From an uncultured bacterium (GTDB taxonomy: Bacteria; Actinomycetota; Acidimicrobiia; Spongiisociales; ZC4RG35), in NCBI GenBank assembly GCA_963825585.1, contig CAWGTX010000007.1, positions 1,839-65,838 of the forward strand: a stretch of DNA of 64,000 nucleotides. Reading direction: 5' to 3'. The position numbers and the translations under genes were made by a program. Shown piece after piece: positions 22,186 through 48,494 of the stretch. The notes below the pieces were generated by a model. That model did no database searches. It was given only the letters and a program-made list of their open reading frames with translations, and was not told the DNA's origin. Each line of letters starts with the position of its first letter. The stretch's first letter is position 1.

Positions 22186-22854
22186 GTGGCGATCACTCTC
22201 GTTCTGGCCGAGGACAGCTTCCTCATGCGCGAAGGCATCACCGCCCTGCTGGCGCTCGACGACCAGCTCGAGCTGCTGGCCGGATGTGCGTCCTACGACG
22301 AGCTGATGGCCGCCGTCGAACTCCACAACCCTGAGGTCGTGATCACCGACATCAGGATGCCGCCGACCCAGACCGACGAGGGAATCCGGGCGGCGAACGC
22401 AATCCGAACGAGCCACCCGGGCACCGGCGTGGTGGTGCTGAGCCAGTACGTGGAACCCGCCTACGCGTTGAAGCTCTTCGAGCAGGGATCGGAGGGTCGG
22501 GCGTACCTCCTCAAGGAACGGGTCGCCGACCTCGACGAACTGGGTGCCGCCATCCGACGCGTCGCCCAGGGCGGATCGGTGGTCGATCCGAAAGTGATGG
22601 ATGCTCTGATCCAGTCGAACTCCGAGGGAGCCTCGACGATCCTCGATCGGCTCACCGATCGGGAGCGGGAGGTCCTCGCCGAGATGGCGAAGGGCGGCAG
22701 CAACGCCGCCATCGGCGAGGCACTCTTCATCTCTGCACGTTCGGTGGAAAAGCACGTCAACACCATCTTCACCAAGCTCGACCTCATTCCGACCGACGAT
22801 GTGAACCGTCGGGTCAGGGCCGTGCTCATCTACCTCGGAGTTGCGGGCGAGTAG
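22186..22854 (+). CDS. NarL/LuxR family DNA-binding response regulator
   Basis: LAED, ITDIRMPP (phospho-Asp), YLLKE, LTDREREVL...SVEKHVNTIFTKL. Confidence 0.95.
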   Translation: MAITLVLAEDSFLMREGITALLALDDQLELLAGCASYDELMAAVELHNPEVVITDIRMPPTQTDEGIRAANAIRTSHPGTGVVVLSQYVEPAYALKLFEQGSEGRAYLLKERVADLDELGAAIRRVAQGGSVVDPKVMDALIQSNSEGASTILDRLTDREREVLAEMAKGGSNAAIGEALFISARSVEKHVNTIFTKLDLIPTDDVNRRVRAVLIYLGVAGE

Positions 22855-22929
22855 CCCGTGCCAGCACCACCCCCGAATGGCGGGTCAGCGCGGTGGTCGA
22901 ACCCCGTCGCCTCCGCCATCATGGGGCGC

Positions 22930-23304
22930 ATGATGTCTGTGCGAGTGCTCATCGTGGATGATCAGAGGCCGTTTCGAGAGGCTTCGCGGATGGTCGTGGA
23001 AATGACCGACGGTTTCGAAGTCGTCGGCGAGGCCGAGAACGGCGAGGATGCCGTTTCCATGGCGTCGGATCTGCGGCCGGACCTGGTTCTCATGGACGTT
23101 CAGATGCCGGGAATCGATGGGCTCGAGGCAACCCGCAGGATCATGAGCCTCGATTCGCCACCTCGGGTGCTGGTGATGTCGACCCACGAATCGGGCAGCT
23201 ACGAAGAGCCGGCGCTGGCGGCCGGTGCCATCGCCTTCATCCCGAAGTCCGAGTTCAGCATGGACGCTCTGGAAACGTCCTGGGCTGCGGCGGTCGGAAC
23301 CTAG
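22930..23304 (+). CDS. Stand-alone receiver-domain response regulator
   Basis: VLIVDD, LVLMDVQMPGIDG, AFIPKS; no output domain. Confidence 0.9.
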   Translation: MMSVRVLIVDDQRPFREASRMVVEMTDGFEVVGEAENGEDAVSMASDLRPDLVLMDVQMPGIDGLEATRRIMSLDSPPRVLVMSTHESGSYEEPALAAGAIAFIPKSEFSMDALETSWAAAVGT

Positions 23305-25370
23305 GACGTACCGGCGACCGCCGCCGATATCGGCACAATCCCTGTGATGGTGGTGCCGACCCCTGGGGTGGAGTCGATGTGGATGGTTCCTCCGACGGTG
23401 TCGAGCCGGTCGGCGATGCCGTTCAGCCCCGCCCCGAGCTTCACCGTCTCCGGATCGAAGCCGTTGCCGTCGTCGGCCACCTCGAAGGTGAGCGCACCGC
23501 CACGTTCTGAAAGGGTGATGGCGACCGAGGAAGCGTCCGCATACTTCGTGGCGTTCTGCACTGATTCGAGGACCGAGAAGTACACGGCGGCCTCCACCTC
23601 CCGGGGGAACCGACCGCACCCCTCGCCCGAGATGGACACCGGAAGCGCGGCCGATCGCACCTGCTGGCGGATCGCCATCACCAGTCCCTCGGCCTCCAAC
23701 GTGGGCGGATAGATCCCGCCGGCGAAATCGCGCACCGCCTTGATGGCGTCTCCCGCCTGCTGCTCCAACTGACCCAACAGACTCGCGGTCTTCTCCGCCC
23801 CCGACTTCTCCGCCAACATCCGGGTCGGCCCCAACTTCACCTTCAACGCCACCAACTGCTGCTGCGGTCCGCTGTCCAGCGTGTGCTCCAACTCACGACG
23901 CGCCGCATCCGCCGCCACCAGCACCCGCTCACGCGACGCTTCCAACTCGGTCACCTGACGACGCAACTCACCCGTCAGCTGGGCGTTACGCAACGCCAAG
24001 CCCAACCCTGATGCCAAATCGGACAGCAGTCCCTCCTCGGCCGGTGTCACCGCCTCGCCCGCTTCCTTGACCAACGACAATCCGCCCAACAGCTCATCGT
24101 CGTGGAACACCCCCAGCGACCAATCCGCCTCGGGATCTGTGAAGGCATCGCCGCCGTCCAGTCGACGCAACCCCGCATCAGACGGCCAAACCGCCGCCGT
24201 TTCGAAGTGGTCGCCGCGTCGGGTCCACAGGGTCGCCGATCTCGCCCCGGTTCCGTCCACCATCCACTGGGGGATGCGTTCCAGCAGCTCCTCATCGGAC
24301 AGCTCGGACGAGCGATGAGAGAACCGGACCAGGATCTCGTGTGGTGTCGCCCGTTCGCCATAGACCAACCGGTTCGCCCAGCGCTGCAACCGTCGACGCG
24401 CCGGCTGGAAGGCCAACGCCACCACGACCGTCGCCACGATCGACAGCCCGAACCCGGCTTCGCCGCCGAGCAACCGACCCAATCCAACGACAGTGGCCAC
24501 GTACACCCCTCCGATGAACAGCGCCAACCCTCCGAAGGTCACCGACCGGGACAGGATGCGATCGATCTCGTACAACCGAAACCGAAAGATGGCGATGGCG
24601 ATGGCAATCGGAATCGCCAGGTAGATGACGGCGTCGAAGAAGGCGAAACCGCTCTCGTACGCTCCGAGCGGATCGAAGATGCCGTTGGAGATGCCGAGCA
24701 CGAAGTACAGCGCGCAGGCGAATCCGACCCATCCGATCTGTCGGCGTTCGACCGGCTCACTCCGGCGAGCCCTCATGATCAACCTGACTGCTGCCACGAG
24801 GAAGAAGATCAGGATGGGAAAGAACAAGACTTCGACGACTGGCCCCAGTGGATCTGCGATCTCGGCGTCGACGAACGGATGGGGGTAGCCCGAGCCACCG
24901 GGCTCCCCCAGGGCGCGGGGGCTCGCAACCAGTGCCAGGAGCGCCACCATCGACGTGTAGATCGCCGTCGCGCGGATGAACCTACGGTCCCACTCCGATG
25001 AAACCCGCCCGTAGGGAAACAGGAGGATCATCGGCACCTGGATCCAGGTGGCGAACTTGTCGATCGGACTGAACGCCCACGCGATCCAACTGGCGACTTC
25101 GACGTCACCCGCCTGGGCGTACCAGGCCGCCGCCACGTCTGCCGCGTGGATCGCATTCCACAGCACCCCGAGTGTCAAGAGCAGCGCACCAACGACGTTG
25201 CCGGGCTTCCGCACGACGATGATCGCCCCGATCGCCATGAAGGCACCGTTGGCAACGGCTTGTCCCCACGCAAGTGGCGTCCCCAGGAGCACGAGCGTCA
25301 CGGCCGCGGCGAGATACACGACCACTGCGGCCACCAGTGCGATCCGAACGCGTCGACTGAGAGTCGTCAT
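23301..25370 (-). CDS. Multi-TM HisKA_3-type sensor kinase with intact HATPase_c but no canonical phospho-His
   Basis: About 9 TM helices and a GAF-like region; H-box reads RELEHTLDSGPQQ; N box ESVQNATKYA, G1 ADDGNGFD, G2 GAGLNGIADR, STPGVGTTI. Confidence 0.85.
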   Translation of the reverse strand: MTTLSRRVRIALVAAVVVYLAAAVTLVLLGTPLAWGQAVANGAFMAIGAIIVVRKPGNVVGALLLTLGVLWNAIHAADVAAAWYAQAGDVEVASWIAWAFSPIDKFATWIQVPMILLFPYGRVSSEWDRRFIRATAIYTSMVALLALVASPRALGEPGGSGYPHPFVDAEIADPLGPVVEVLFFPILIFFLVAAVRLIMRARRSEPVERRQIGWVGFACALYFVLGISNGIFDPLGAYESGFAFFDAVIYLAIPIAIAIAIFRFRLYEIDRILSRSVTFGGLALFIGGVYVATVVGLGRLLGGEAGFGLSIVATVVVALAFQPARRRLQRWANRLVYGERATPHEILVRFSHRSSELSDEELLERIPQWMVDGTGARSATLWTRRGDHFETAAVWPSDAGLRRLDGGDAFTDPEADWSLGVFHDDELLGGLSLVKEAGEAVTPAEEGLLSDLASGLGLALRNAQLTGELRRQVTELEASRERVLVAADAARRELEHTLDSGPQQQLVALKVKLGPTRMLAEKSGAEKTASLLGQLEQQAGDAIKAVRDFAGGIYPPTLEAEGLVMAIRQQVRSAALPVSISGEGCGRFPREVEAAVYFSVLESVQNATKYADASSVAITLSERGGALTFEVADDGNGFDPETVKLGAGLNGIADRLDTVGGTIHIDSTPGVGTTITGIVPISAAVAGTS

Positions 25371-27463
25371 GAGAGCTCCGCCACCAGTTGGGTGGTCGAC
25401 GACACGGCGTCGATCGACTGGGGTGTCGGGAATCGCGCGGTGAGTTCGATGGCCTGATCCGCCGCATGAATCGAGAGGGTTCCACCGGCGGCGTCGACTC
25501 GGTCGTGGACGACGGTGACGTCGAGGTCTGTCGTTCCTTTCACATCGACTGTCATCACCAACTCACCGGCGAGGCCGGTGAGACCGACCGTCATCTGCGT
25601 CGCTCCCGACATGCGGGCCCGTTCGATCATCTCGAGCACCGAGAAGTAAACGGTCTCCTCGATCGGGCGTGGAAACCTGGCGACGTCATCGGCGCCGACG
25701 GTGAGGGGTATCTGCGAGGTTCGTTCGACCGCACGCAGGGCAGCCTCGAGACCCTCGGACTCCAACAACGGCGGATAGATCCCGTGGGCGACCGCCCTGA
25801 GCGCATCGACCGCCTGTTGGGTCTCCTCGGCCAACACCGACACCCGGGCGACGATGTCGTCGGCGCCTTCCCGTTCGGCGATGGTCCTGGCGATCCCCAA
25901 CTTCACCTTCAACGCGACGACCTGCTGTTGGGCACCGTCGTGGAGATTCCGTTCGAGACGATGACGCTCGGAGTCCTGCGCAGCGATCAGCCGCCGCCGC
26001 GACTCCCGCACCTCTTCCGCCCGCTTCTCCAACTCACGATTCAACGAGATGTTGCGCAACACCAACCCCGCACCGGCAGCGACATCCGCCAGCAAATCCC
26101 GATCGTTCGGACTGATCGGATCGTCGGGCGGTTTGGTGATGCTCACTGCACCGAACACGTCACCCCGATACACCACCGGCCGTGATGCTGTCAGCTCGTC
26201 GTCGACCAGACCACCAACAGAAACCGGTTCGATCGACTGGGATTCCCCACGGAAGAAGACCCCGTCAGGTGACAGCACGTCGTCGATCTTCAACCAGACG
26301 ACCGCCCGCTCGGCACCGGTCCCCTGGGCAAGCAACTGAGCGAGGTCGTCGGTGCCGTTGCCGATCGTCGACTCAGCCAGCCGGGAGGTGAGCTTTGAAA
26401 GCACCTCGTGTGGCGTGGCTCGCTCGCCGTAGACCAGACGGTCGGCCCAGCGCTGCATTCGGTCCCGGACAGGCTCGAACACCACCGCCACCACAGCCGC
26501 CGCCACGATCGGGAGCACCAGACCCGGCCCCTCACCATCCGACCGCCCAACCACGAGCAGCGGCAACACCACCACCGTTGCGTACAAGCCGGCGATCGTC
26601 ACAGCCAAAGCGAGGTAGGTCACCGACTTGGAAACGATGACGTCGATGTCGTAGAGGCGGTATCGGAAGATCGAGACGCTGATCCCGAGTGGTATCAACA
26701 CGATCGCCACGGCGTCGATCAGCAGGAAGGCGCTGTCTTCATTGCCGAGCGGGGCGATGGACACGTTGGCGATGAGAATCGTCAGGTTGAGGACGACTGC
26801 TGCGGCGATCCAGCCCACCTGGCGGCGCTCGATCGGATCGCCGTGACGCAGCCTGAGGACCAGCCTCACGGCGACGAAGTATCCGAACGCGAAGAACAGA
26901 AAGGTCAAGCCTTGAACGACGACGTAGAGGGGTTGAGCGATCTCGCTCGGGACGAAGGGGTGCGGGTACGCCTGGGTCTCGGGTAAGAGTTGGGGGGTGG
27001 CGAAGACGGTGGCGACCGTCACCACGGCCGCGAGTGCCCCGCTTGCCTGGAGGAGCCTCCGGTCTGTCTCCGTGGTGGGCCGACCATTGGGGAAGACCAA
27101 CCAGATGGCGGCGAGCAGCCAGAACGTAGGAGCGACCGGTACGACCGCTGCGAGGGTCATCCAGGCGGCGGCATCAAGACGTCCCGCCTGGTCGAGGGCG
27201 TCGGCCATGACGCCCAGCGCTGTCGACAGGGCCCACAGCGAGCCGTATGCCACGAGCATGAGCCCCAGCCGATTCTCCCGGCGCACCACGATCAGCCCAC
27301 CGACCAGGACGAAGGTACCGAAAGCGGTGAGGGTGGCGATCTCGTAGCTCCGTGACAGGACCAGGGAAACCACGACCGAAACGAGGTAGACGGCCACGCC
27401 GGCACGGAGAAGACGTCTCTGCCGAGTCCGGGGACCGGTGACCCGACCATCCGTCGGCATCAT
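25367..27463 (-). CDS. Multi-TM HisKA_3-type sensor kinase with intact phospho-His but degenerate HATPase_c
   Basis: Paralog of the neighbour (shared RLVYGERATPHE). H-box RLERNLHDGAQQ; N box reads EMIERARMS; no DDGxG or GxGL. Confidence 0.85.
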   Translation of the reverse strand: MMPTDGRVTGPRTRQRRLLRAGVAVYLVSVVVSLVLSRSYEIATLTAFGTFVLVGGLIVVRRENRLGLMLVAYGSLWALSTALGVMADALDQAGRLDAAAWMTLAAVVPVAPTFWLLAAIWLVFPNGRPTTETDRRLLQASGALAAVVTVATVFATPQLLPETQAYPHPFVPSEIAQPLYVVVQGLTFLFFAFGYFVAVRLVLRLRHGDPIERRQVGWIAAAVVLNLTILIANVSIAPLGNEDSAFLLIDAVAIVLIPLGISVSIFRYRLYDIDVIVSKSVTYLALAVTIAGLYATVVVLPLLVVGRSDGEGPGLVLPIVAAAVVAVVFEPVRDRMQRWADRLVYGERATPHEVLSKLTSRLAESTIGNGTDDLAQLLAQGTGAERAVVWLKIDDVLSPDGVFFRGESQSIEPVSVGGLVDDELTASRPVVYRGDVFGAVSITKPPDDPISPNDRDLLADVAAGAGLVLRNISLNRELEKRAEEVRESRRRLIAAQDSERHRLERNLHDGAQQQVVALKVKLGIARTIAEREGADDIVARVSVLAEETQQAVDALRAVAHGIYPPLLESEGLEAALRAVERTSQIPLTVGADDVARFPRPIEETVYFSVLEMIERARMSGATQMTVGLTGLAGELVMTVDVKGTTDLDVTVVHDRVDAAGGTLSIHAADQAIELTARFPTPQSIDAVSSTTQLVAELS

Positions 27464-28764
27464 GTCTGCCTCGGTGGGAAGCGGTGGGCACCGACGGCGG
27501 TATCACGGCCTTTGACCAGCGCCGGCTCCAGCACGTCCGCTTCGGGTTGCCACTCGATCGCCTGCCACGTCGGCTCACTGAGGACCGTCTCGCCGGGCTC
27601 GGCCCACTGCTGCAGCCGCTGGGTGAGGTTCACGGTGTCGCCGACGACCGAGTACTCCAGCCGCTCCTCGGATCCGAGCAGGGCCGCCGCCACCAACCCG
27701 GTCGACAGCCCGATGCCCAGTCCGAAGGGATCAAGCCCATCGGATTCCCACCGCTGATTGAGGTCGGACTGGGCTGTGTGCATGGCGATGGCGGCAGCGA
27801 CCGCCCGATCGGCGTGGTCGGTTTGGGCTACCGGCGCCCCGAACACCGCCATGACGGCGTCGCCGACGAACTGCATGACCGTCCCCCCCTCCCCGAGGAT
27901 GGCGCGGTTCATCGCCGCCCGATGTTCGTGGAGCTGGCCGGCCAGGGCGCTCGGTTCGGCGTGCTCTGCGATGGTGGTATACCCCCGGATGTCGGACATG
28001 AGCACTGTGACGATCAGTTCCTCGGTCTCACCGGGGCGGCGGCCCTCGCCGATGATCTGTGCCGCCACCCCGCCGGGTAGGAGCCGGCCGAGCGCTTCGC
28101 CCTGCTCCCGACCGTCGACTATGGCCCGCTGGAGCATCTTGAGACGGTCGAGACTGTCGGAACGCCCGGCGGCGAGCCCCTCGGCGAGCTTGCCGAACAA
28201 CGCCTCGATGGCGGCGTTGGCATCGGAGGGGGTGGTGGCGAGGTGGGCCGCGATCGCCTTCACCGTCCGCCCCTCGGCCACCAGCCTCAACAACTCCTCC
28301 TCACCGCTCGACAGTGAGCCGTCGGCCCTGACCGGGTTGACCAGGCCCTCGACGATCTTGGAGTCGAGCAGCGACCCGCCGGCCGCCACCTCACGCACCG
28401 CCCGCGCCAGCTGATCGCCTTCACCCACCCGGTCCTTCAGCAGGTAGGCGTATCCGGCGGCGCCCTCGGACAGCAACGAGACGGCGTAGTCGGGGTCGTC
28501 GAACTGCGAGAGGATCACGACGCCGGTTCCCGGGTGGCGCTTTCGGACCTCCTTGGCGGCATCGATTCCCTCACGCGAGAAGTTGGGCGGCATGCGGATG
28601 TCGGTGACGATCACCTGCGGACCGGTGGCCTCGGCGCCGGCCACGAGCTCGTCGTAGGCGCCGGCTTGACCCACGACCTCGAAGTCGTCCTCGAGCTCGA
28701 GCAGGGCCTTGACTCCCTCCCGCACGATGAGATTGTCATCGGCCAGGAACACGGTGATCGGCAT
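27460..28764 (-). CDS. Receiver / LuxR-like HTH / class III nucleotidyl cyclase fusion
   Basis: REC: FLADD, VTDIRMPP, YLLKD. HTH-like: LSSGEEELLRLVAEGRTVKAIA. Cyclase: MSDIRGYT, MQFVGDAVMAVFG, GIGLSTG, EYSVVGDTVNLTQRLQ. Confidence 0.9.
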   Translation of the reverse strand: MPITVFLADDNLIVREGVKALLELEDDFEVVGQAGAYDELVAGAEATGPQVIVTDIRMPPNFSREGIDAAKEVRKRHPGTGVVILSQFDDPDYAVSLLSEGAAGYAYLLKDRVGEGDQLARAVREVAAGGSLLDSKIVEGLVNPVRADGSLSSGEEELLRLVAEGRTVKAIAAHLATTPSDANAAIEALFGKLAEGLAAGRSDSLDRLKMLQRAIVDGREQGEALGRLLPGGVAAQIIGEGRRPGETEELIVTVLMSDIRGYTTIAEHAEPSALAGQLHEHRAAMNRAILGEGGTVMQFVGDAVMAVFGAPVAQTDHADRAVAAAIAMHTAQSDLNQRWESDGLDPFGLGIGLSTGLVAAALLGSEERLEYSVVGDTVNLTQRLQQWAEPGETVLSEPTWQAIEWQPEADVLEPALVKGRDTAVGAHRFPPRQT

Positions 28765-28968
28765 GACAGACCTCTCGGGACGATGGAACGTGTCGCCATC
28801 TTGGCCGGTCACCGGGCGATTGCCCAGCGTGCGGGCTCGCAGTCTCGAGGTGGTGCCAGCACCCATGCGTCGAAGGGCCATCACCCTGGCGCGGATCCGA
28901 CGAGGGGCGCACATTGGGACCTACAACCCGAGCCCGACATCACCGGCCGACCACGAGAGGAGAGGGCG

Positions 28969-37771: not shown

Positions 37772-38863
37772 CTAGCGGAGATCGACCCTGACCGGCGTAC
37801 TCGTATGGGACGCCTCCTCGATGGCGAGGGTGGCCGCCAGGGTCACCAGCGCTTCGGGACCGGTGGTCAGGTGGCACGGGGCACCCACCGTCAGATGGTC
37901 GAGCCAGGCGCGGGTCTCGTCTGCAATGCGCCCGAACATCTTGCCCTGTGCCCACTCACCGGAGGTTCGGCTGCCGAGGAAGGCGAACTTGAGTTCCTGA
38001 TTGGTGGCGTAGGCGTTGGTGTATCCCTGCTCGGAGAACAACATCTGGTCGCGGTGATCGTCGTCGATGAGGATTGCGCCTTCCGAACCGAACATCTCGA
38101 AGCGGATGCTCTGCCCGGTGGTGGGGAACCCCAGCGGCAACGAGTAACAGACGTCGAATCCGAAGGAGGTCCCGTCGGAATAGGTGACGGTGGCGGTTGT
38201 GACGTCGTCGACGTCGAAACCGTGTTCCCGGAACACCACACCGTGACCGCGAGCAAACGCCTCGACCGGGACGACATCGGGCGCGAGATACCACCCGACC
38301 AGATCGACGAGATAGGTCATGATGTCCATGACGGGCGTGGCGTGGACACTACGACCGAGGATGGCGAGCCCCTGGGACCGACTCGAGTAGACCCGGCTCC
38401 ACCCGCCCACCACGGTGCCGATCTTGCCCTGCTGCACCAGGTCACGCGACACGAAGTACTTCTGCAGGTAGCGGGCGCTGTATCCCACCCGGAGATCCAC
38501 CCCAGCGGCGACCGCCTCTTCAACCATCTTCGTGCCACCGGGAATGTCGAGAGACAGGGGCTTTTCGACCAGCACGGGCTTGCCCGATGCGATCGCGGCC
38601 AGGGTGGCGTCGACGTGGGAGTCCTCGGGAGTCGACACGATGACCGCATCGACCCTGGGGTCGTTGATGACCGCGAACGAATCGTCGCCCACCGCGTCAG
38701 CCTCGGTGGCGGCGCCGAGTCGTTCCGCCGCCGCGCCATCGATGTCGGCGATGCGCAGGTAGTCGACACCGGGATGATCGGTGACGAGGCGGGCTCGGTG
38801 GGTGCCGATCCTGCCGGCACCCACCACGCCGACGCCGATGCTCCGGCGTCGCCCTCTCGTCAC
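37772..38863 (-). CDS. Gfo/Idh/MocA family oxidoreductase
   Basis: GVVGAGRIG, VIVSTPEDSH, GKPVLVEKP; GTGA overlap with the TauD gene. Confidence 0.9.
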   Translation of the reverse strand: MTRGRRRSIGVGVVGAGRIGTHRARLVTDHPGVDYLRIADIDGAAAERLGAATEADAVGDDSFAVINDPRVDAVIVSTPEDSHVDATLAAIASGKPVLVEKPLSLDIPGGTKMVEEAVAAGVDLRVGYSARYLQKYFVSRDLVQQGKIGTVVGGWSRVYSSRSQGLAILGRSVHATPVMDIMTYLVDLVGWYLAPDVVPVEAFARGHGVVFREHGFDVDDVTTATVTYSDGTSFGFDVCYSLPLGFPTTGQSIRFEMFGSEGAILIDDDHRDQMLFSEQGYTNAYATNQELKFAFLGSRTSGEWAQGKMFGRIADETRAWLDHLTVGAPCHLTTGPEALVTLAATLAIEEASHTSTPVRVDLR

Positions 38864-39888
38864 GAGGCGACCCGTGCGGGAATGCCGCCCATCTCGACCA
38901 CGCGGTAGCGCTCGGCCAGTTCGGCGGCGAGCGTGCGACGACGCTCGGGCGGGAAGGCAACCCAGATGCGCAACAGGTGGCGCTTGAGGTCCTCGTCGTC
39001 GTAGTCCTCGAACTCGGTACGGGCGTGGAGGATGGCGTGGTTGTTGATGAACTGCATGTCGCCTTCCTGGAACATCATCGACAGGCGCAGCTCGGGTCGG
39101 TTGCACACCTCCTGGACGAAGTCCAGCGCTTCGCGCTGGATGTCGGTGAGAGCGAGTTCCTCCCCGAAGCGGGTCACGGTGTTGAAGTACTGGCGGCTGG
39201 TGACCCGGGAGGTCACCTTGCCGTCGGTGTAGCTGAACATCGCCGAGGTGTACCAGCCCGGGTCACCTTCGGGCTCCTCACCGCGCCAATCGAGGTTGAA
39301 CGGCTGGTAGAGCACCTCGAGCAGGTCGGGGCGCTCCTCGAGGATGACGTTGTGGACCGTGTCCACCGCCACCAGCGCGCTCTCACCGCCGGACTTGGCG
39401 GTGCGCACGCAGAACAACCCGAGGATGTCGACGGGAAGCTGGTCGGCGTGGAAGTCCATCTTGGCGCTGGTCTGATACCCGCGCACCGTGGGATCGTCGA
39501 AGTTCTTCCCCTCGTCCCGCACGTGGCCGAGCAGGTGACCGCGGGTGTTCTGAGAGATCGGGGTGCCAAGGTTGACGGCGATCCCCCAGTAGATCATCTC
39601 GCATTCCTCGACCGTGTAGCGATCACGGGGCACGCCCCGCACCAGGACCATGCATCGGCCGTTCTCGAGCTGATCGGGGATCGAGTCGAGCAATCCGCCC
39701 ATCGAGGGAAGCTGGAAGTCCTCCTTCCCGAAGGGGATGCTCAGGCCTTTGGCCTGGACGCCGCGGAGTGCGGCGTCGATGTCGGCGATGGCGGCATCGT
39801 CGAGGTGGACGATCCAATCGGTGTCGTCCTGAATCTCGGGACCCACCCAAGCGGACGGTCCGCTGAGGGGTGTGCGGCGTACTTCCAT
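38860..39888 (-). CDS. TauD/TfdA family Fe(II)/2-oxoglutarate dioxygenase
   Basis: GPSAWVG, RGYQT, FHAD (HxD), SGGES, GDMQFINNHAILHART, RHLLRIW. Confidence 0.9.
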   Translation of the reverse strand: MEVRRTPLSGPSAWVGPEIQDDTDWIVHLDDAAIADIDAALRGVQAKGLSIPFGKEDFQLPSMGGLLDSIPDQLENGRCMVLVRGVPRDRYTVEECEMIYWGIAVNLGTPISQNTRGHLLGHVRDEGKNFDDPTVRGYQTSAKMDFHADQLPVDILGLFCVRTAKSGGESALVAVDTVHNVILEERPDLLEVLYQPFNLDWRGEEPEGDPGWYTSAMFSYTDGKVTSRVTSRQYFNTVTRFGEELALTDIQREALDFVQEVCNRPELRLSMMFQEGDMQFINNHAILHARTEFEDYDDEDLKRHLLRIWVAFPPERRRTLAAELAERYRVVEMGGIPARVAS

Positions 39889-39912
39889 GATCGACCTCCT
39901 CGGGGTTCTGAC

Positions 39913-39927
39913 ATCTTGCACGATATA
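39913..39927 (+). promoter_or_regulatory. Candidate operator ATCTTGCACGATATA
   Basis: Recurring motif, upstream of the TauD gene. Confidence 0.7.
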
Positions 39928-39957
39928 TGACTGAGAGAGCAGCGGAGCCGCCGATGG

Positions 39958-41139
39958 TCACTTTTTCGTGACCGCACCCAGTCGCTCCACCGGTGTCGCC
40001 GTGAACATGAGCCCACCAAGCACCAACGGGAGGCCGGCCACCACGAAGGCGAGCCCGTACTGGGAGCTGTCGGCCATGAACCCGAGCACGGTGGGACCCA
40101 CGATCCAACCCAGGTCGTTGGCCATGCGGTAGAGACCGCTGGCGAGCCCCTCTGTGCCGGGAGGTGCCATGTCGCCGATCATGGTCGGCAGCGCCACCGC
40201 AGCCATCCCCGCCCCCACCCCGTTGAGGGCCGCAACGAAGGCGATCTGGGCGGTGCCGTTGGCGAGGCCGTAGGCCGCCACCATGAAGGCCGATACGAAC
40301 ACACCAGCCATCGCCACCGGACGCCGGCCGACGGTGTCGGTGAGTCGCCCGGCCACCGCCATGACGAACAGCGACACGATCGAACCGAGTGAGATGATGA
40401 TGCCGATCTGGCCCGGTGAGAGATTCAGCACGTCATCGGCATAGGCGGGGACGAGGACGTTGGTGGCTCCGGCCCTCACGAAGAAGAGGCCGAACGCCAA
40501 CACCATCACCAGCTTGAAGCCACCCAGGGCGAGCAGCGAGCGAATCGGCTTGGCCACCACCTCCTTGGCGGCGTCTTCGACGATGTCATCGGCGATGAAC
40601 CGCCAGCTGGCCACGACGATCCCGAAGGTGATCACGGCCTGCACGCGGAACGGTGCGAAGATCCCGAACCGGTCGGCGACGAGTCCGCCGATCAACGGCC
40701 CCATCGTGTTGCCCAGCAGGATGCCCGATTGGAATCCGGCGGTCGCCTTGCCCAGTTCGGCCTTCTCGGTCATCACCAGCAGGTGCCGGTTCACGGCGGT
40801 GCCGAACATCGACGAGCCAATGCCCTGCATGAGGCGAGCACCCAACAGGATGCCGAAGGCGGGAGCGACCGCCGCCAACACAGCCCCGGCGGTCTGCACC
40901 ACCCCCCCGGCCGTGCACACGATCCGGGAGCCGTGTTTGTCCGAGAGCTTGCCGGAGATGAGCCGCATGCTCATGCGGGCGAGGGCGAAGGCGGTGAGCA
41001 GCGACGAGGCGATGCCTATCCCCACCCCGTAGTGGGCGGCGTAGGCGGGCAGGGTCGGTGCAACCAGGTTGACGCCGATCACGTTGAGGGCGACGAGCCA
41101 GGCTGCCGAAGAGCCGTAGGAGTGTCGTCCCCGTTTCAC
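39958..41139 (-). CDS. MFS transporter
   Basis: About 12 hydrophobic helices; motif A variants GKLSDKHGSR and GRLTDTVGRR. Confidence 0.9.
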   Translation of the reverse strand: MKRGRHSYGSSAAWLVALNVIGVNLVAPTLPAYAAHYGVGIGIASSLLTAFALARMSMRLISGKLSDKHGSRIVCTAGGVVQTAGAVLAAVAPAFGILLGARLMQGIGSSMFGTAVNRHLLVMTEKAELGKATAGFQSGILLGNTMGPLIGGLVADRFGIFAPFRVQAVITFGIVVASWRFIADDIVEDAAKEVVAKPIRSLLALGGFKLVMVLAFGLFFVRAGATNVLVPAYADDVLNLSPGQIGIIISLGSIVSLFVMAVAGRLTDTVGRRPVAMAGVFVSAFMVAAYGLANGTAQIAFVAALNGVGAGMAAVALPTMIGDMAPPGTEGLASGLYRMANDLGWIVGPTVLGFMADSSQYGLAFVVAGLPLVLGGLMFTATPVERLGAVTKK

Positions 41140-41153
41140 GTCGCATCTGCCAT

Positions 41154-41168
41154 ATCCTGCATAATGTA
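41154..41168 (+). promoter_or_regulatory. Candidate operator ATCCTGCATAATGTA
   Basis: Recurring motif in the 40-bp gap between divergent MFS genes. Confidence 0.6.
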
Positions 41169-41179
41169 TTCTCCAGAGG

Positions 41180-42371
41180 ATGGCGGGTGCAATCCGGGCT
41201 CGACCCGTCCAATTCCTCACGGCCCACCCGATGGCCACCGCCGTGCTGTACGTGACGACCGGAGTACTCCCGCTCTACCTGACGAGCTCTCAGATCATCT
41301 CCCTCAACGACGACCTGGGATTCGAGCGCGGCCCGCCTGGGTCTTGCCACCTCGACGTACTTCGGAGTCGGGGCACTCGCTTCCCCCTATGCGGGCAGGC
41401 TGGTCCAGCGCCGGAGCGCCACCTTCGGCCTCCACGCCGGCTCATTGTTCGCGGCGGGCGCCTGCTTGGTCAGCGCCGCCGCTGGGCGATGGTGGCTGCT
41501 TCCGATCGCCACGGCATTGAGCGGCATCTCGAATTCGTTCATGCAGGTGGGATCGAACATCGTGCTGGTGCGAGTGGCCGCCTTCGAACGTCAGGGCGTA
41601 TCGTTCGGCGCCAAGCAGGGCGCCATCCCGCTCGCCAGCATGCTCGCCGGAGTGCTGCTCCCGGTGATCGGCGTCGCCGTCGGCTGGCGCGTCACGTTTC
41701 TGATGGCGGCGGCGCTGGCGTTGATCACCTTCGCCATCGCTCCACCGGTGCCAGGCGCACCCACCCAGGTGGCGCCACCCGCCGTGCGCACGGGGAAGGT
41801 GCCGAGACCGTTGCTGTTCCTGGCGATCGGCGGCGCCTGCGGCGGTGCCGCCGGCAACGCCGTCTCGTTGTTCGTGGTTCCTTCCGCCGTACACGAAGGC
41901 GTCTCCGAGGCGGTGGCGGGCACCATCCTGGCGGTGTGCTCTGCGATGGTGGTCGGTATCAGGATCGGATCCGGATGGTTGGCGGACCGGTCGCGGAGCA
42001 GCGGTCATCGCGAGATGGCGTGGCTGCTCGGTCTCGGGGTGATCGGGTGCTCGACTCTGGCGGTGGTGTCCGGGGTTCCGCTCTACCTGGTCGCCATGCC
42101 CCTCGCCATGATGGGATCGTGGGGATGGCCCGGCTTGGTGTACTTCACGGTGACCAGCACCAATGCCGACAACCCGGCCCGAGCCTCGGGGGTCGTGTTG
42201 GGCGGCAACCTGACCGGCACGCTGCTGGGTCCACTGGTGGTCAGCCAGCTCGCCGAGCGTGAGATGTACCCGGCGGCGTGGGCGTTCTGCGCCGTCATAT
42301 CAGCCGGAGCGATGACTGCCATGATCCTCAGCAATCGCGCATGGAAACGGGTTGGCGCCGCCGCGGTGTGA
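41180..42371 (+). CDS. MFS transporter, frameshifted near 41326
   Basis: Hydrophobic N-terminus (VLPLYL), continuing in another frame with RQGVSFGAKQGAIP, GWLADR, GSWGWPGL. Confidence 0.75.
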
Positions 42372-42400
42372 GCGTCGCTCCCCCCGGGCGACCCGGTGCC

Positions 42401-42415
42401 ATCGTGCAACATATA
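42401..42415 (+). promoter_or_regulatory. Candidate operator ATCGTGCAACATATA
   Basis: Recurring motif, upstream of the cupin-monooxygenase genes. Confidence 0.7.
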
Positions 42416-42447
42416 GGATCGGATCAACACGTAGACAAGGAGCGATC

Positions 42448-42825
42448 ATGGAAGCCGGCACAGAACTGGTCGACCAAGGCACCTACGACCCCGCCGAGTA
42501 TGCCGAAGAGCTCGAGGCAGCCCCCCACAACCTCGACGTGGGCACGTCGATCCTGTTCGAGAACCACAGGATCCGGGTGTGGGACATCATCCTCAAGCCG
42601 GGCGAGCGCGGTCCGTTCCACGCCCACACCCGCAATTACTTCTGGACCGTGGTCGAGGGTTCCCGCGGCCTCCAGCGGTTCGCCGACGGCACCTTCGCAG
42701 TCCGTGACTACCTCGAGGGCGAGACCAAGTGGCTCGAGCACACCCCCGAGACCGCCCTCATCCACGACCTGGAGAACATCGGCAACACCGATCTCCGCTT
42801 CGTCACCGTCGAACTGTTCGACTGA
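42448..42825 (+). CDS. Cupin domain protein
   Basis: AAGGAG RBS; VGTSILFENHRIRVW, PGERGPFHAH, IHDLENIG..LRFVTVEL. Confidence 0.85.
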   Translation: MEAGTELVDQGTYDPAEYAEELEAAPHNLDVGTSILFENHRIRVWDIILKPGERGPFHAHTRNYFWTVVEGSRGLQRFADGTFAVRDYLEGETKWLEHTPETALIHDLENIGNTDLRFVTVELFD

Positions 42826-42835
42826 ACAACGCTTC

Positions 42836-44029
42836 GTGACAGCACCAAGAGTCCTCATCGCCGGCGGCTCGATCGGCGGTCTCACCGCCGGTCTGCTGCT
42901 CGCCGACCTGGGCTACGACGTCCAGATCTTCGAGCGGTCCAGCGCCGCTCTGCAGGAACGGGGAACGGGGATCGTGGTGCTGCCGATCACCGAGCGTTAC
43001 TTCACCGAGAAGGGCGGCGACGACGACCGGCCCAGCCTCGAGCTGACCTACTGGAGCTACATCGACGGCGATGGCCGGATCACCCACGCCGACGCCGATC
43101 ACTTCCGGTTCTCCGGATGGAACACCGTGTACCGGGCGATGCTCGACGTGTTCCCCCGGGAGCGGTACCACCTGGACTCCGAGATGGTGGGCTTCGACCA
43201 ACGAAGCGACGGAGTGACCCTGCACCTCGCCGACGGCCGCTCGGTCGACGGCGACCTGTTGGTGTGTTCGGACGGGATCGCCTCGACGGCACGACGCATC
43301 CTGCTGCCTGATTGCAGCCCGACCTACTCCGGTTACGTCGCCTGGCGGGGCATCACCGACGAACGGGACCTGAGTGCCGAGACACTCGAGACGGTGCGCG
43401 ACGCCATGGTCTATCAGGTGCTCGACCACAGTCACATCCTGGTCTACGCCATCCCTGATCACGACGGTGACGCCACGCCGGGCAAGCGGACGATCAACTC
43501 GGTGTGGTACCGCAACTACCCCGACCACGGCGACGGCTTCGGCTCCTTCGCCGGGCTCATGACAGGCAACGATGGGCAACGGCGCGCCACCACCATGCCA
43601 CCGGGAATCCTGCGTGATGAGTACGTCGAAGAGATGCTGGCTGCCGCCCGCTCCACCTTGGCGCCCCAGCTGCGCGAGATCGTCGAGAAGTGCCCGGGGC
43701 CGCTCGTCCAGGCCATCTACGACCTCGAGGTGCCGCAGATGGCCTTCGGTCGGGTCGTCATCATGGGCGACGCCGCCTTCGGGTTGCGGCCCCACGTCGC
43801 AGCCGGCCAGGCAAAAGCCTGTGCAGACGCCTGGGCGCTCAAGGAGTCGATGATGGAGACGGACGGCGACATCGACGCCGCCCTGGCTCTGTGGGAGCCC
43901 CGCCAGTTGGCCCTGGGTCGGATGGCGGTCGCCAAGACCAGAGGAATGGGGATCCGCTCGCAGATCGAAGGGGTGATGGAGCCAGGCGATCCGGCGTGGA
44001 AGTTCGGGCTCTGGGAGCCGGGCAATTGA
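42836..44029 (+). CDS. FAD-dependent monooxygenase (2,6-dihydroxypyridine 3-hydroxylase-like)
   Basis: IAGGSIGGL, FERS, SDGIAS, YSGYVAWRG, NSVWYRN, GRVVIMGDAAFGLRPHVAAGQAKA. Confidence 0.85.
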   Translation: MTAPRVLIAGGSIGGLTAGLLLADLGYDVQIFERSSAALQERGTGIVVLPITERYFTEKGGDDDRPSLELTYWSYIDGDGRITHADADHFRFSGWNTVYRAMLDVFPRERYHLDSEMVGFDQRSDGVTLHLADGRSVDGDLLVCSDGIASTARRILLPDCSPTYSGYVAWRGITDERDLSAETLETVRDAMVYQVLDHSHILVYAIPDHDGDATPGKRTINSVWYRNYPDHGDGFGSFAGLMTGNDGQRRATTMPPGILRDEYVEEMLAAARSTLAPQLREIVEKCPGPLVQAIYDLEVPQMAFGRVVIMGDAAFGLRPHVAAGQAKACADAWALKESMMETDGDIDAALALWEPRQLALGRMAVAKTRGMGIRSQIEGVMEPGDPAWKFGLWEPGN

Positions 44030-44042
44030 GGAGAGACCAAAC

Positions 44043-45182
44043 GTGATCGTGGAAATCATCGCTGTCGGAACCGAGTTGCTGATCGGTCAGATCATCAACT
44101 CCAACGTCGCATTCATCGGACAACGGCTGGCCGACGAAGGGTTCGACTCGCACTACCAGGTGACGGTGGGTGACAACCTCGACCGACTCTCGTCGGCGAT
44201 CACCACAGCCCTCGGTCGGGCCGACGCGGTCATCCTCACCGGCGGGGTCGGCCCAACCCAGGATGACCTCACCCGCGAGGCGATCTGCGCCGCCACCGGA
44301 CGCGATATGCGCCGAGACGAGGCCCACGCCCAGCGTATCCACGACCGGATCATGGCCCGGCGCGGGTTCGTGGCCGACAGCGTGTTGAGGATGGCGGACT
44401 ACCCCGCAGGTGCCGAACCGCTCCCCAACACCCAGGGAGTGGCGCTCGGTGTCGCCCTGCTCCAGGACGGCAAGTGGATCTGCGCCGTACCGGGTGTACC
44501 CCGTGAGATGTCGGCCATGGTCGACATGGAGGTGATGCCACGACTGAGGGCCGCTTCCGGCAAGGCGGCCGTCATCCGGAGTCGTGTGCTGCATACATGG
44601 GGATACGGCGAGTCGCAGGTGGCCGAGATCCTCGACGACCTCTACGCCTCGACGAACCCCTCGATCGCCTTTCTCATCTCGGACATGGAGGTGAAGGTAC
44701 GCATCACCGCCAAGGCAGACGATGCAGGATCGGTCGAAGCCCTGATCGCCCCGGTCGAGGCGGAGGTCCGGAACAGGCTCGGCGAGGTGGTGTTCGCCAC
44801 CGACGACGAGACCAATCTCGATGTCATCGGGCGCGACCTCGGTCGCCGCCAGGTCGGCGTGTTCGAGGTGGCAACCGCAGGGATGGTCACCCACCGGCTC
44901 AGCGGCGTGATGGGCTTCGCCGGTGGTACCACAGTGCCGATCGGACCTGACGCCGTGGATCTCGCTCGCCGGGCCGTTGCGGTATTCGGCGCCGAGATCG
45001 GACTGGGGGTATCCGAACCGCGGATCGTGGAAGACTCCGGTGAGCAGGCCACCGAAGTCACCTTCGCCGTGGTCACGCCCGACGGGGAGACCAGTCGCGA
45101 CATGCGCTTCTTCGGGACCGGCGAGAGGGCCCGGTCGTATGCGGTGATCGCCGCACTCCACGTGCTCCGTGAATCACTCTGA
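44043..45182 (+). CDS. cinA: CinA family protein (MocF-like N-terminal domain, degenerate C-terminal domain)
   Basis: IIAVGTELLIGQIINSN, VGDN, LTGGVGPTQDDLTRE, PGVPREM, GYGES. Confidence 0.85.
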   Translation: MIVEIIAVGTELLIGQIINSNVAFIGQRLADEGFDSHYQVTVGDNLDRLSSAITTALGRADAVILTGGVGPTQDDLTREAICAATGRDMRRDEAHAQRIHDRIMARRGFVADSVLRMADYPAGAEPLPNTQGVALGVALLQDGKWICAVPGVPREMSAMVDMEVMPRLRAASGKAAVIRSRVLHTWGYGESQVAEILDDLYASTNPSIAFLISDMEVKVRITAKADDAGSVEALIAPVEAEVRNRLGEVVFATDDETNLDVIGRDLGRRQVGVFEVATAGMVTHRLSGVMGFAGGTTVPIGPDAVDLARRAVAVFGAEIGLGVSEPRIVEDSGEQATEVTFAVVTPDGETSRDMRFFGTGERARSYAVIAALHVLRESL

Positions 45183-45263
45183 CCCGGCCGGGGTCGGGGT
45201 TAGAGGCCCGAACGTGAGACAATGAAACAAGGCCGCCTCTCGGCGGCCGGCCTGGAGGCACGC

Positions 45264-45389
45264 ATGGGAAGCAAGGAAAAGGGCGGCAGAAGCACCAAGA
45301 AGGTGGCCGCCAAGGATCTGAAGCAGAAACGAGCCGACAAGCAGGCCAAGAAGGACTCGGTGGCAGGCAAGCCCACCAAGGTCGTTTGA
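45264..45389 (+). CDS. 41-aa Lys-rich small basic protein (not in the ORF track)
   Basis: GGAGG RBS; MGSKEKGGRSTKKVAAKDLKQKRADKQAKKDSVAGKPTKVV. Confidence 0.6.
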   Translation: MGSKEKGGRSTKKVAAKDLKQKRADKQAKKDSVAGKPTKVV

Positions 45390-45437
45390 TGCCGGCACTC
45401 GCCCCGGCGAACCATCGCCGAAACGGGAGTATCTGAC

Positions 45438-45701
45438 ATGGCGCAACGCGGCCGCGAAGGCATGGCGAAACGCGCCCGAGAACGGGCCCGCCAGGAACGC
45501 CAGGAGAACAAGCGGGCCAAACGTGAGCTCGAGCCGGACGAGCAGTCGGCCGAAGCGATCGACGGGCCCGACGAGGCCGCTCTGATGGAGGAGTTCCGAC
45601 TTCTCAGCGAACGTCATGCAGCCGGACAGGTGAGCATTGACAACTACCTCGAAGAGAAGAAGCGGATCTTCGTGGAGCTCGGGTTGGAGTCCGACGACTG
45701 A
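45438..45701 (+). CDS. Hypothetical protein with a basic N-half and acidic C-half
   Basis: GGGAG RBS; KRARERARQERQENKRAKRE coiled segment; coding-like codon usage. Confidence 0.65.
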   Translation: MAQRGREGMAKRARERARQERQENKRAKRELEPDEQSAEAIDGPDEAALMEEFRLLSERHAAGQVSIDNYLEEKKRIFVELGLESDD

Positions 45702-45789
45702 TTCTGGGCGGGACCGGCTCACACGGTCCGGCTGACATCGTGTCGGGTTTGTTCAAGACGCCGGCGCCGCCGTTTCGTAGGGTCGGGTC

Positions 45790-46368
45790 ATGACCGATCC
45801 CATCGAACTCATCGACGCCATGCTCACGGAGGCTCACCGACTCATCGAAGGTGTCGCGCCTGAACACCTGTCCTCGGCGACCCCGTGTGACTCCTTCGAT
45901 GTGCGTGGCATACTCGACCACATGTGCACGTGGGTGGCCGTCTTCGATGGCACCGCCAACAACCGTGCCCTCGACTTCGATCCTGAGTCCTTCGCCCTCG
46001 ATGCCGGATGGTCGGAGTGGTTCGCCAAGGCGGCCTCCGGCATGGTGGCCGGGCTGCGCCAGCACGGATACGACCGCCCCATGGTGATGACCTCCGACCC
46101 CCTCCCCGGGTTCGTGGTCATCGACATGCTCTCGATGGAGTACATCGGCCACGGGCTCGACATCGCAGTCTCGACCGGCCAGGTCCACCGCTTCACGGTC
46201 GAACAGGCCGAGGCCGCTCTGGCCGCCTCGGAGCGCCTGATCCAACCCGAGTATCGCGGCCTCGGGGAGGGACAGTTCCACCCCGTCGTCGCGGTCGCTC
46301 CCAACGCCAGCGCGTTCGACCGGTTCGTGGGGTTCCTCGGACGGGATCCGGGCTGGTCCCCCGCATGA
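45790..46368 (+). CDS. TIGR03086-like DinB/MDMPI family metal-binding protein
   Basis: ATPCDSFDVRGILDHM, EYIGHGLDIAVSTGQ, DRFVGFLGRDP. Confidence 0.85.
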   Translation: MTDPIELIDAMLTEAHRLIEGVAPEHLSSATPCDSFDVRGILDHMCTWVAVFDGTANNRALDFDPESFALDAGWSEWFAKAASGMVAGLRQHGYDRPMVMTSDPLPGFVVIDMLSMEYIGHGLDIAVSTGQVHRFTVEQAEAALAASERLIQPEYRGLGEGQFHPVVAVAPNASAFDRFVGFLGRDPGWSPA

Positions 46369-46391
46369 GACGGTGACCCAGTCCACGTGGG

Positions 46392-47240
46392 ATGATCGTC
46401 GTCGATATGCCCACGGCCTCGACGTCAGAACATCCCGACCACCGGGCGCACCTCACCGGTACGCACGCGCCCACCCCGCCCATCCATCGTTACGCGCCAT
46501 CCGCGCCCCTGGCCGGCCTCATCCGCAGCTTCTGGATCCCTGAGTGGGATCTGGCCCACGGCGTCACCCAGATCCAACGGGTGTTGCAGTACCCGGTGTG
46601 CCTCATGGTTGTCTCCGACCAGTACGCCAGGTTGTACGGCGTCACCACCGTTCTCTCCCAGGTGGAGTTGACCGGGACCGGGTGGGCGGCCGGAGTGATG
46701 TTGCAGCCGGCGGCGGGGTGGCTCATCTGGAATCAGCCGGTCTCCACCCTCACGGACCGCCACGTTCCGCTCGAGTCCGTTCCGACCTTCGACGGTGCCG
46801 GTCTCACCGATCAGATCCGGGCGATCATGGAGACCCGGTCGGTGGTCACCGGCGCCCACCTCGCGGTGACGGCTACGTATGAACGGACTCTCCGCCACCT
46901 GGGCGAGATCGACGACGAGGGGCACGTGATCAATCGCCTGGTGGAGCAGGTCGAGTCCGACCCTCATCTGGTCAGGGTGGAGCAGTTGGCCGAAGCAGCA
47001 GCCATGAGCGAGCGGGCCCTGCAACGGCTGACCCGCCATCGCCTCGGGCTCACACCGAAGTGGCTCATCCAACGCAGGCGCCTCCATGATGCCGTCGAGC
47101 ACCTCAAGACGGGAGAGGTGGCGTTGGCCAATCTGGCCCACACCCTCGGATACACCGATCAGGCGCACTTCACTCGTGACTTCGCCCGAGCGACCGGGCT
47201 CACACCGGGGGCATACCTGGCGACTCAACCGGGGGTGTGA
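46392..47240 (+). CDS. AraC family transcriptional regulator
   Basis: FWIPEWDL...QRVLQYP; SERALQRL..LGLTPKWLIQRRRL; LGYTDQAHFTRDF. Confidence 0.9.
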   Translation: MIVVDMPTASTSEHPDHRAHLTGTHAPTPPIHRYAPSAPLAGLIRSFWIPEWDLAHGVTQIQRVLQYPVCLMVVSDQYARLYGVTTVLSQVELTGTGWAAGVMLQPAAGWLIWNQPVSTLTDRHVPLESVPTFDGAGLTDQIRAIMETRSVVTGAHLAVTATYERTLRHLGEIDDEGHVINRLVEQVESDPHLVRVEQLAEAAAMSERALQRLTRHRLGLTPKWLIQRRRLHDAVEHLKTGEVALANLAHTLGYTDQAHFTRDFARATGLTPGAYLATQPGV

Positions 47241-47320
47241 GCCGTGTGACCTGCCGGACTGCGGTGGTGCCCGACTCTGTGCCGGACACCACCGCGTCCC
47301 CCCCCGGGAAGGAACCGGGC

Positions 47321-48414: not shown

Positions 48415-48442
48415 TCCGGGAGAAATCATCGAAAAAGCGCTC

Positions 48443-48475: not shown

Positions 48476-48494
48476 ACACTGAAGACCAAATCAG

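Follow-up and report, generated by a model that had tools for sequence, protein, structure and literature searches.

Results

Two adjacent kinase genes with reciprocal motif losses

We analysed a 64,000-nt stretch of an uncultured bacterium of the order Spongiisociales (class Acidimicrobiia; contig CAWGTX010000007.1 of assembly GCA_963825585.1), hereafter called the window, and in it a pair of adjacent sensor histidine kinase (HK) genes, HK-A and HK-B, whose active-site defects are reciprocal (Table 1). An earlier note, made from the DNA letters, had described them as translationally coupled paralogues with several transmembrane (TM) segments each, and this description was borne out. Both open reading frames (ORFs) exist and are paralogous (38% identity over 642 columns, E = 7e-131), and a simple hydropathy scan finds about 9–10 hydrophobic segments within the first ~330 residues of HK-A and of HK-B. 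The multi-TM N-terminal sensor regions span residues ~1–332 and ~1–325, respectively, and are followed by a linker, the dimerization and histidine-phosphotransfer (DHp) domain and the catalytic and ATP-binding (CA) region. ATGA overlaps are present at the junction between the receiver-cyclase gene and HK-A as well as at that between HK-A and HK-B, and the three genes are translationally coupled.

In the alignment of the two proteins, the H-box ERNLHDGAQQ of HK-A lies opposite EHTLDSGPQQ of HK-B, so that His508 faces Asp499; recomputation returned the same codon positions for both residues as the earlier note. HK-B also has Ser500 in place of the Asp of the phosphatase motif. The situation is reversed in the CA domain, where HK-A has Arg615 instead of the N-box Asn (EMIERARMS), a G1 box reading DVKGT and a deletion of the G2/lid segment relative to HK-B, which itself retains all three boxes. 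The Pfam searches agree with the alignments. HK-A passes the HisKA_3 threshold (37.6 bits, cut-off 24) and shows no HATPase family at E ≤ 0.1, whereas HK-B matches HATPase_c (43.8 bits, cut-off 26.4; E = 3.8e-11) and reaches only 20.8 bits with HisKA_3, under the cut-off of 24 and over profile positions 14–67 only. When compared with a complete HisKA_3 kinase (PF07730 with PF02518), HK-B lacks the phospho-acceptor His and HK-A lacks the N-box Asn and the G1/G2 glycines; neither protein alone qualifies as such a kinase, but the pair together does. The phospho-acceptor and the ATP-binding site are found on separate, co-encoded polypeptides, as they are in a split kinase.

Table 1. Positions in the window of the two kinase genes, their catalytic domains and the three receiver genes of the cassette
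Feature	Position	Strand	Remarks
HK-A	25367..27463	minus	698 aa; His-bearing subunit without ATP site
DHp of HK-A	25739..26056	minus	residues ~470–575; H-box ERNLHDGAQQ; His508 at 25940–25942
CA-like domain of HK-A, degenerate	25370..25714	minus	residues ~584–698; Arg615 (25619–25621) at the N-box Asn position
HK-B	23301..25370	minus	689 aa; ATP-binding subunit without His
DHp of HK-B	23673..23978	minus	residues ~465–566; H-box EHTLDSGPQQ; Asp499 at 23874–23876
CA (HATPase_c) of HK-B, intact	23304..23648	minus	N606 at 23553–23555; G1 DDGNG; G2 GAGL
Receiver-cyclase (receiver, degenerate GerE-like linker, Guanylate_cyc)	27460..28914	minus	first operon gene; stop overlaps the HK-A start
Single-domain receiver	22858..23304	plus	Response_reg, E = 4.6e-25; convergent with HK-B, stops overlapping by 4 bases (CTAG)
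NarL/LuxR-type regulator (receiver and GerE helix-turn-helix)	22186..22854	plus	GerE, E = 1.5e-13; Response_reg, E = 1.1e-12; upstream of the single-domain receiver

The N-terminal membrane domain of HK-A and HK-B has no match in Pfam, and the linker of HK-A gives a weak, sub-threshold match to GAF. All NCBIfam models fall far short of their cut-offs; the highest score is that of MctS, 56–64 bits against a cut-off of 700. Elsewhere, tandem ORFs of ~400 aa match only the membrane part of HK-A (residues ~13–410) and have no kinase part (genome G030, contig C3, ~37862–51205; further arrays in G006:C2, 45372–50890, and G010:C39, 33984–38724; genomes, contigs and loci are designated here by G, C and L numbers), and, as far as these matches go, there may also be a family in which the sensor domain stands by itself.

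The reciprocal defects are conserved across the order

We searched the window's own genome, 40 relatives, 251 genomes from the order and 301 from the class, and found many tandem arrays of this kinase family. We took 57 regions, aligned each of their family ORFs with a cytoplasmic-part profile and noted the residues at the H, N, G1 and G2 positions. A complete A gene followed by a complete B gene occurs 23 times in 22 genomes, which belong to seven families within the order and one outside it; 22 of these pairs, including that of the window, are in the order, and the remaining one is in G342, from another order. Adjacent same-strand pairs of family genes number 46 in the order. In 23 of them, a gene with the His and no N-box Asn is followed by a His-less gene with an intact CA domain: 22 are the A/B pairs, the window's included, in which the His is replaced by Asp, and one is found in G007. 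Beyond the window, the reciprocal A/B pattern is therefore present in 22 other complete pairs, and the ORFs are full-length and uninterrupted in all 23. At loci where both flanks lie on the contig, A and B always occur together.

In the A clade (n = 25), the His, the Asp at +1 and the Gln at +4/+5 are present in every sequence and the N-box Asn in none, whereas all 28 members of the B clade have Asp at the His position and keep the N-box Asn. The G1/G2 positions of the B alignment (D188, G190, G192, F193, G201 and G203) are invariant; at +1 B has Ser, Met or Arg, and the Gln at +5 is kept in 28/28. Over the 22 loci that have both genes, the pairwise identities of A and of B are correlated (r = 0.91), and the A clade (25 rows) and the B clade (24 rows) are each monophyletic, with support of 99 and 100, respectively, in the Shimodaira–Hasegawa-like approximate likelihood ratio test (SH-aLRT) and of 100 for both in a more careful tree. 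Hence, A and B have been inherited as a pair. The earlier note had proposed a comparison of homologous pairs, and it turns out that the His loss in B and the ATP-box loss in A co-occur without exception across the orthologous pairs, under purifying selection (see below); orthologues with intact motifs or with random decay were not seen among them.

HK-B of the window has a His residue, His496, that precedes position 499 by about one helical turn, and HK-B might thus autophosphorylate alone on another residue, such as this His of the EHT sequence or Asp499 itself. However, the position at −3 is variable within the B clade (His in 18, Arg in 7, Asn in 2 and Lys in 1 of 28; Ile in G342), and the His-less paralogues of a related cassette described below have Arg, Gly or Gln there. 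No invariant or near-invariant His is present in the 244-residue cytoplasmic part of B in the B-clade alignment. The displaced His, which the earlier note had considered as a possible acceptor, was rejected as a conserved phospho-acceptor, and autophosphorylation of HK-B by itself appears very improbable.

In a separate scan for the family, which covered at least 597 stretches, the 80 top-ranking loci contained for the most part canonical kinases from other Actinomycetota and from Dormibacterota, and L040, on a contig of G001 from the window's genus, was the only A/B locus among these 80. Two contigs end in a B-like CA fragment with intact N, G1 and G2 boxes upstream of an A gene (L126, 7535–7852, at the end of G110:C7; L140, 2–319, at the start of G049:C6), and some genomes may thus carry B-A-B arrays. 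Within the window's GTDB family, the A/B cassette is found in the window's own genus only, and the other genera have the related cassette. The nearest orthologues outside the genus are in other families (L120 in G136:C62 and L122 in G135:C57), with residues 330–689 of HK-B being 87% identical in G136, which suggests a lateral transfer of the A/B cassette or a misplaced bin.

Purifying selection acts on both genes

The ratio of nonsynonymous to synonymous substitution rates (omega) was estimated by the Nei–Gojobori method against three orthologues. Over the whole gene, omega was 0.24–0.29 for HK-A and 0.15–0.23 for HK-B, and both are under purifying selection. The constraint was strongest in the DHp domains, with 0.04–0.08 for HK-A and 0.02–0.03 for the His-less HK-B (vs G001 and G136). 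The CA domain of HK-B gave 0.14–0.24 and the CA remnant of HK-A 0.37–0.43, and so the latter is relaxed but not neutral. The extreme constraint on a DHp domain that has lost its His fits a place for HK-B inside a catalytic four-helix bundle, as judged from the substitution pattern.

These data also bear on the question of whether the defects reflect nothing more than the decay of redundant paralogues, or an assembly or sequencing artefact. The window comes from a metagenome-assembled genome, and two extra copies of the A/B cassette elsewhere look broken: in L034 (G036:C8, 167000–176000), A has its H-box in one frame and its CA region in another and the cyclase gene is broken into two ORFs, and in L137 (G197:C22), a split B gene has one in-frame TGA. 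However, 23 uninterrupted, full-length pairs carry identical motif states across 22 genomes, with omega values of 0.15–0.29 overall and of 0.02–0.08 in the DHp domains, and true decay, as in the two extra copies, looks different. Decay or artefact as the cause of the defects is contradicted by the pair counts, the omega values and the motif conservation, and the probability that we would give it is negligible; the earlier note had also argued that a single sequencing error could not explain the defects.

The kinase pair is enclosed in a conserved five-gene cassette with three receivers

The two kinase genes are flanked by genes for three receiver proteins (Table 1). A homologue of the receiver-cyclase gene lies directly upstream of A in all 18 A/B loci whose flank measures 1300 nt or more. 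Downstream of B, where the loci have a flank, the single-domain receiver is present in 21/22 and the NarL-type regulator in 20/22; the two exceptions are one locus with a second B gene after B and one with a short flank. All three receivers of the window have the acidic pair, the phospho-acceptor Asp, the Ser/Thr and the Lys, as read from their sequences, and the receiver of the NarL-type regulator is a paralogue of that of the receiver-cyclase (E = 1e-44).

The receiver-cyclase matches Guanylate_cyc (E = 1.2e-20) and Response_reg (E = 5.1e-16) in Pfam, and GerE below the cut-off (E = 0.012). Its true start is probably Met51 (~28764), because the alignments to homologues begin at query residues 46–52. 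In 32 homologues, the DD/D/S/K residues of the receiver and the metal Asp, Asn and Arg residues of the cyclase are kept in 30–32/32. For the cyclase part (residues ~300–484) taken by itself, both metal Asp residues, the Asn and the Arg are kept in 31–32/32. At the two putative substrate-specifying positions, which we take to be Lys/Asp in enzymes using ATP and Glu/Cys in those using GTP, the homologues have Gln (30/32) and Ser (12/32) or Thr (20/32), and therefore the cyclized nucleotide is not assignable.

The window's genome contains no other close member of the kinase family, the next matches having E values of 1e-10 and 4e-4. Since the cassette has three phosphorylatable receivers, since homologous cassettes always contain a complete kinase and since the genome has no close relative that could serve instead, the simplest reading is that the kinase consists of A and B combined.

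Paralogous cassettes show a range of kinase states

The same five-gene cassette also encloses a paralogous pair of kinase genes, X (upstream) and Y (downstream), mostly in the window's GTDB family. G171 carries both an A/B and an X/Y cassette, and these are therefore two paralogous systems. The X/Y pairs are found in several states. Both kinases are intact in 5 of the 46 pairs, one of which is an X-X pair in G010. An intact X is combined with a His-less Y (Asp, Asn or Ile) that has an intact CA domain in five pairs, plus one in which the G2 box of X is weakened, and with a Y that has the His and a degenerate CA domain in one pair (G168). In the pair of G007, X has the His and a degenerate N-box, and Y has an Asn for the His and an intact CA domain. 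No single family gene among the genes of the order's classified pairs lacks both the His and the N-box Asn, and no array lacks all His residues or all ATP sites among the arrays that lie wholly on a contig.

The loci of this series are L025 (G010:C40), L027 (G006:C30), L028 (G023), L029 (G007:C53), L148 (G168:C4), L144, L147, L149, L150 and L151. In G010, four kinase genes stand in tandem, the first two having the His and the last two lacking it, and a short contig of G008 (L030) carries as its only family gene one of the Y type, in which Glu occupies the His position. Canonical family kinases in other Actinomycetota and in Dormibacterota often precede a paralogue in which Arg, Gly or Ser takes the place of the His; some of these paralogues keep the N, G1 and G2 boxes, while others are fully degenerate (for example L046, 10527–12155; L050, 7884–10109; L053, 3403–5922; L063, 7344–8879; L065, 5174–7744; and L072, 5243–7768; also L056, L085, L088, L093, L097, L101 and L119). 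One such group, with R/S-E-G-P, has Gly-Pro after the His position as the B clade does (27/28), yet the two form separate clades in the tree.

In quick trees, A groups with the Y1 genes, which are downstream and often His-less (SH-aLRT 98–99). A more careful tree (LG+G4) also places A with Y1 (89/68) and places B with X, the upstream His-bearing genes (91/83), and an approximately unbiased test rejects a grouping of A with X (p = 0.026), the groups having been named after a tree had been seen. It is thus moderately supported by the trees that A groups with the Y genes and that B is nearer to the X genes. If this placement is right, separate lineages would have fixed the division of labour in opposite directions (G007 vs A/B). 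The case for a split kinase was not made to depend on it.

The X/Y cassettes are also where an alternative without any kinase activity finds some support. Here, B would be an ATP-binding pseudokinase or regulator, and A would be a phosphatase or a phosphotransfer hub, fed by another kinase or by small-molecule donors via the receivers. This would account for the His-less, CA-intact members that stand beside intact kinases in five pairs of the paralogous cassette and for the His-substituted, in part fully degenerate, paralogues that follow canonical kinases outside the order; bacterial pseudo-histidine-kinases such as DivL and RetS are known, and HK-A keeps the acidic residue and the Gln of what we take to be the phosphatase motif. 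Such a reading would, however, leave three conserved phosphorylatable receivers without a kinase, which the homologous cassettes always have, in a genome with no other close family member. It also sits poorly with the ATP-binding residues of B, which are invariant in 28/28 within a strongly constrained CA domain, and with the invariance (25/25) of His508 of HK-A and its surroundings, which fits a phospho-acceptor in use. We therefore regard a system with no kinase activity as unlikely.

A probable split kinase acting in trans

This paired defect, conserved across the order, means that HK-A and HK-B very probably work only together, and we think it rather probable that each supplies one half of a natural split kinase and that A receives its phosphoryl group from B in trans. 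HK-B would be the ATP-binding catalytic subunit, and its CA domain would phosphorylate His508 of HK-A. The reaction would take place in a heteromeric complex in the membrane, in the simplest case an A:B heterodimer, with a four-helix DHp bundle to which each subunit would contribute one hairpin. From phosphorylated HK-A, the phosphoryl group would then pass to the receivers of the cassette, namely the receiver-cyclase, the NarL-type regulator and the single-domain receiver. HK-A is probably also the phosphatase subunit, because only HK-A keeps the acidic residue next to the His plus the downstream Gln; we assume here, following the NarX literature, that the phosphatase motif of HisKA_3 kinases consists of an acidic residue at His+1 and a Gln at His+5 (D-x-x-x-Q), which is intact in HK-A. 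The physical association, the trans reaction and the choice of receivers are what we infer for this system, as is any AND-gate logic over the two sensor domains, which the earlier note had suggested.

An AlphaFold2 model of the cytoplasmic part of HK-A, built with 25 orthologues in the alignment, had a mean predicted local distance difference test score (pLDDT) of 83.9. In this model, the helical hairpin and the alpha/beta sandwich of the CA domain are retained, and only seven residues are found between strand 180–188 and helix 196–204, where the ATP lid belongs. The best fold matches were the cytoplasmic structures of DesK and the CA domain of VraS (TM-score 0.69, target-normalized). The B-clade profile matches the CA domains of VraS, DevS and DesK.

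A complex prediction for the cytoplasmic parts of HK-A and HK-B gave a score of 0.54, compared to 0.00 for the best of three controls. The runs agreed in at least 94% of the contacts, and the pLDDT of the partner was at least 82. In the calibration, the mark was reached by 58/80 solved complexes and 2/110 mismatched pairs, and the score of 0.54 falls in the range up to 0.60, which holds 7 of the 80 solved complexes and both of the passing mismatches. The prediction covered the HK-A:HK-B combination only and gives no ranking against A:A or B:B. It thus lends weak, model-based support to an HK-A:HK-B heterodimer. Consequently, the two parts of the proposal made in the earlier note have fared differently: the complementary split kinase is supported by the comparative test, while the DHp heterodimer, for which the support from modelling is weak, keeps the standing of a conjecture.

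Alternatively, A and B could each form homodimers, with the CA domains of a B dimer phosphorylating an A dimer in a higher-order membrane complex, so that no mixed DHp bundle would be formed. All of the comparative evidence for complementation fits such an arrangement equally well, homodimerization is the default for histidine kinases and the complex prediction for HK-A:HK-B is weak. In the CheA3/CheA4 system, moreover, the kinase subunit self-dimerizes and acts on a separate His-bearing protein, as described in PMC3591291. On the other side, the His-less DHp domain of HK-B is as constrained as that of A (0.02–0.03), which is more easily explained if it lies inside a bundle presenting the His of A, and the translational coupling favours a 1:1 co-assembly; neither argument is decisive. 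Phosphorylation between separate homodimers is, in our judgement, improbable, though less so than autophosphorylation of HK-B alone.

Discussion

Our results describe a pair of sensor kinases in which one has kept the phospho-acceptor and the other the ATP-binding site, and we favour a natural split kinase, with B phosphorylating A in trans, as the explanation. Several points weigh against this. Trans-autophosphorylation in the family is assumed, and a family working in cis would gain nothing from a heterodimer. The HisKA_3 kinase DesK is said to autophosphorylate in trans; a passage to this effect was not found in the DesK paper PMC5231405, and PMC5956149 makes no mention of DesK. The His-less partner adjoins a fully intact kinase in most of the paralogous cassettes (five pairs), and therefore such members have some role that is independent of complementation, which B could share. 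The CA remnant of HK-A is still under selection (omega 0.37–0.43), which the split-kinase reading leaves unexplained. The complex score is weak by its calibration, and the solved DesK dimers may explain its passing as a mere likeness. The two extra A/B copies in G036:C8 and G197:C22 look broken. The support comes from sequence comparison and modelling. Finally, paralogous histidine kinases are, to our knowledge, generally thought to avoid heterodimerizing.

A further-reaching picture can be drawn, which we put forward tentatively and would not ourselves back at even odds. The A/B system could be a locked, obligate heteromeric transmembrane receptor kinase, in which two multi-TM sensors share one catalytic centre, made up of the ATP site of B and the His of A, and serve three receivers, among which is the one carried by a nucleotide cyclase whose specificity residues are unusual. 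The X/Y cassettes would preserve intermediates (both kinases intact, one without the ATP site, one without the His, and reciprocal either way) and, together with A/B, would form a natural record of how a homodimer turns into an obligate heteromer by complementary degeneration. This would be a bacterial counterpart of the eukaryotic receptor pairs of a kinase and a pseudokinase. With the intermediate states of X/Y at hand, comparisons among natural proteins could test the evolutionary route.

As far as we know, sensor histidine kinases are treated as homodimers, and their paralogues are thought to evolve away from cross-dimerizing. Most known examples of split kinases are soluble CheA proteins or mutants made in the laboratory. 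If the split-kinase reading is true, HK-A and HK-B would be a natural heteromeric receptor kinase, in which two sensor domains control one phosphorylation reaction. The kinase and phosphatase functions would then reside on different subunits, an arrangement that is predicted to be switch-like in PMC3591291.

The underlying logic has precedents. His-site and ATP-site mutants of EnvZ reportedly restore activity when they are combined. Intermolecular complementation of defective mutants is likewise said to occur in CheA. These cases follow the same logic as A and B, but they involve engineered point mutants of one protein, whereas the A/B defects are natural, fixed and order-wide. In Mycobacterium tuberculosis, HK1 and HK2 (Rv0600c/Rv0601c) reportedly belong to a three-protein two-component system, with the ATP-binding and His parts encoded by adjacent genes. 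This is reportedly one kinase cut into two short proteins, unlike two complete sensor paralogues with reciprocal pseudo-domains. DivL (with CckA) and RetS (with GacS) are said to be kinase-like proteins that act by contact with another kinase, their own catalytic residues being unused. Their partners are fully active kinases, whereas neither protein of the A/B pair is complete and the defects are reciprocal; the sole cassette partner of HK-B, HK-A, has no ATP site, and so the catalytically complete partner of a DivL- or RetS-like protein is not found here.

A comparison can also be made with ChrS and HrrS, two kinase paralogues of Corynebacterium glutamicum that we take to be of the HisKA_3 type. 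These heterodimerize in two-hybrid assays, and a ChrS variant without the CA domain still affects HrrS-dependent signalling, according to PMC9491836, which also mentions DivL. Unlike A and B, both native kinases are complete; the CA-less form arose in laboratory evolution, the His was not needed and no heterodimer of the truncated form was detected.

The closest relative in terms of mechanism is the CheA3/CheA4 pair of Rhodobacter sphaeroides. According to PMC3591291, both proteins are needed for autophosphorylation and the His-bearing one is also a phosphatase, and the separation of kinase and phosphatase is predicted to give ultrasensitive or bistable, switch-like responses. As in HK-A/HK-B, the phospho-acceptor and the ATP site are on two proteins, and in our pair only HK-A keeps the residues of the phosphatase motif. 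However, CheA3 and CheA4 are soluble members of the CheA family, are not membrane receptors and have lost whole domains (P1, or P3–P4), whereas HK-A and HK-B are full-length transmembrane sensor paralogues of the HisKA_3 type, which have kept the folds and lost active-site residues. In the Creative Commons papers of PubMed Central and in bioRxiv, we came across no natural pair of full-length membrane kinases in which one partner has lost the His and the other the ATP site. In summary, the logic of such a split kinase is itself known. The novelty lies in two transmembrane sensors that are both full-length and keep every domain as a fold, and whose reciprocal defects are fixed across an order.

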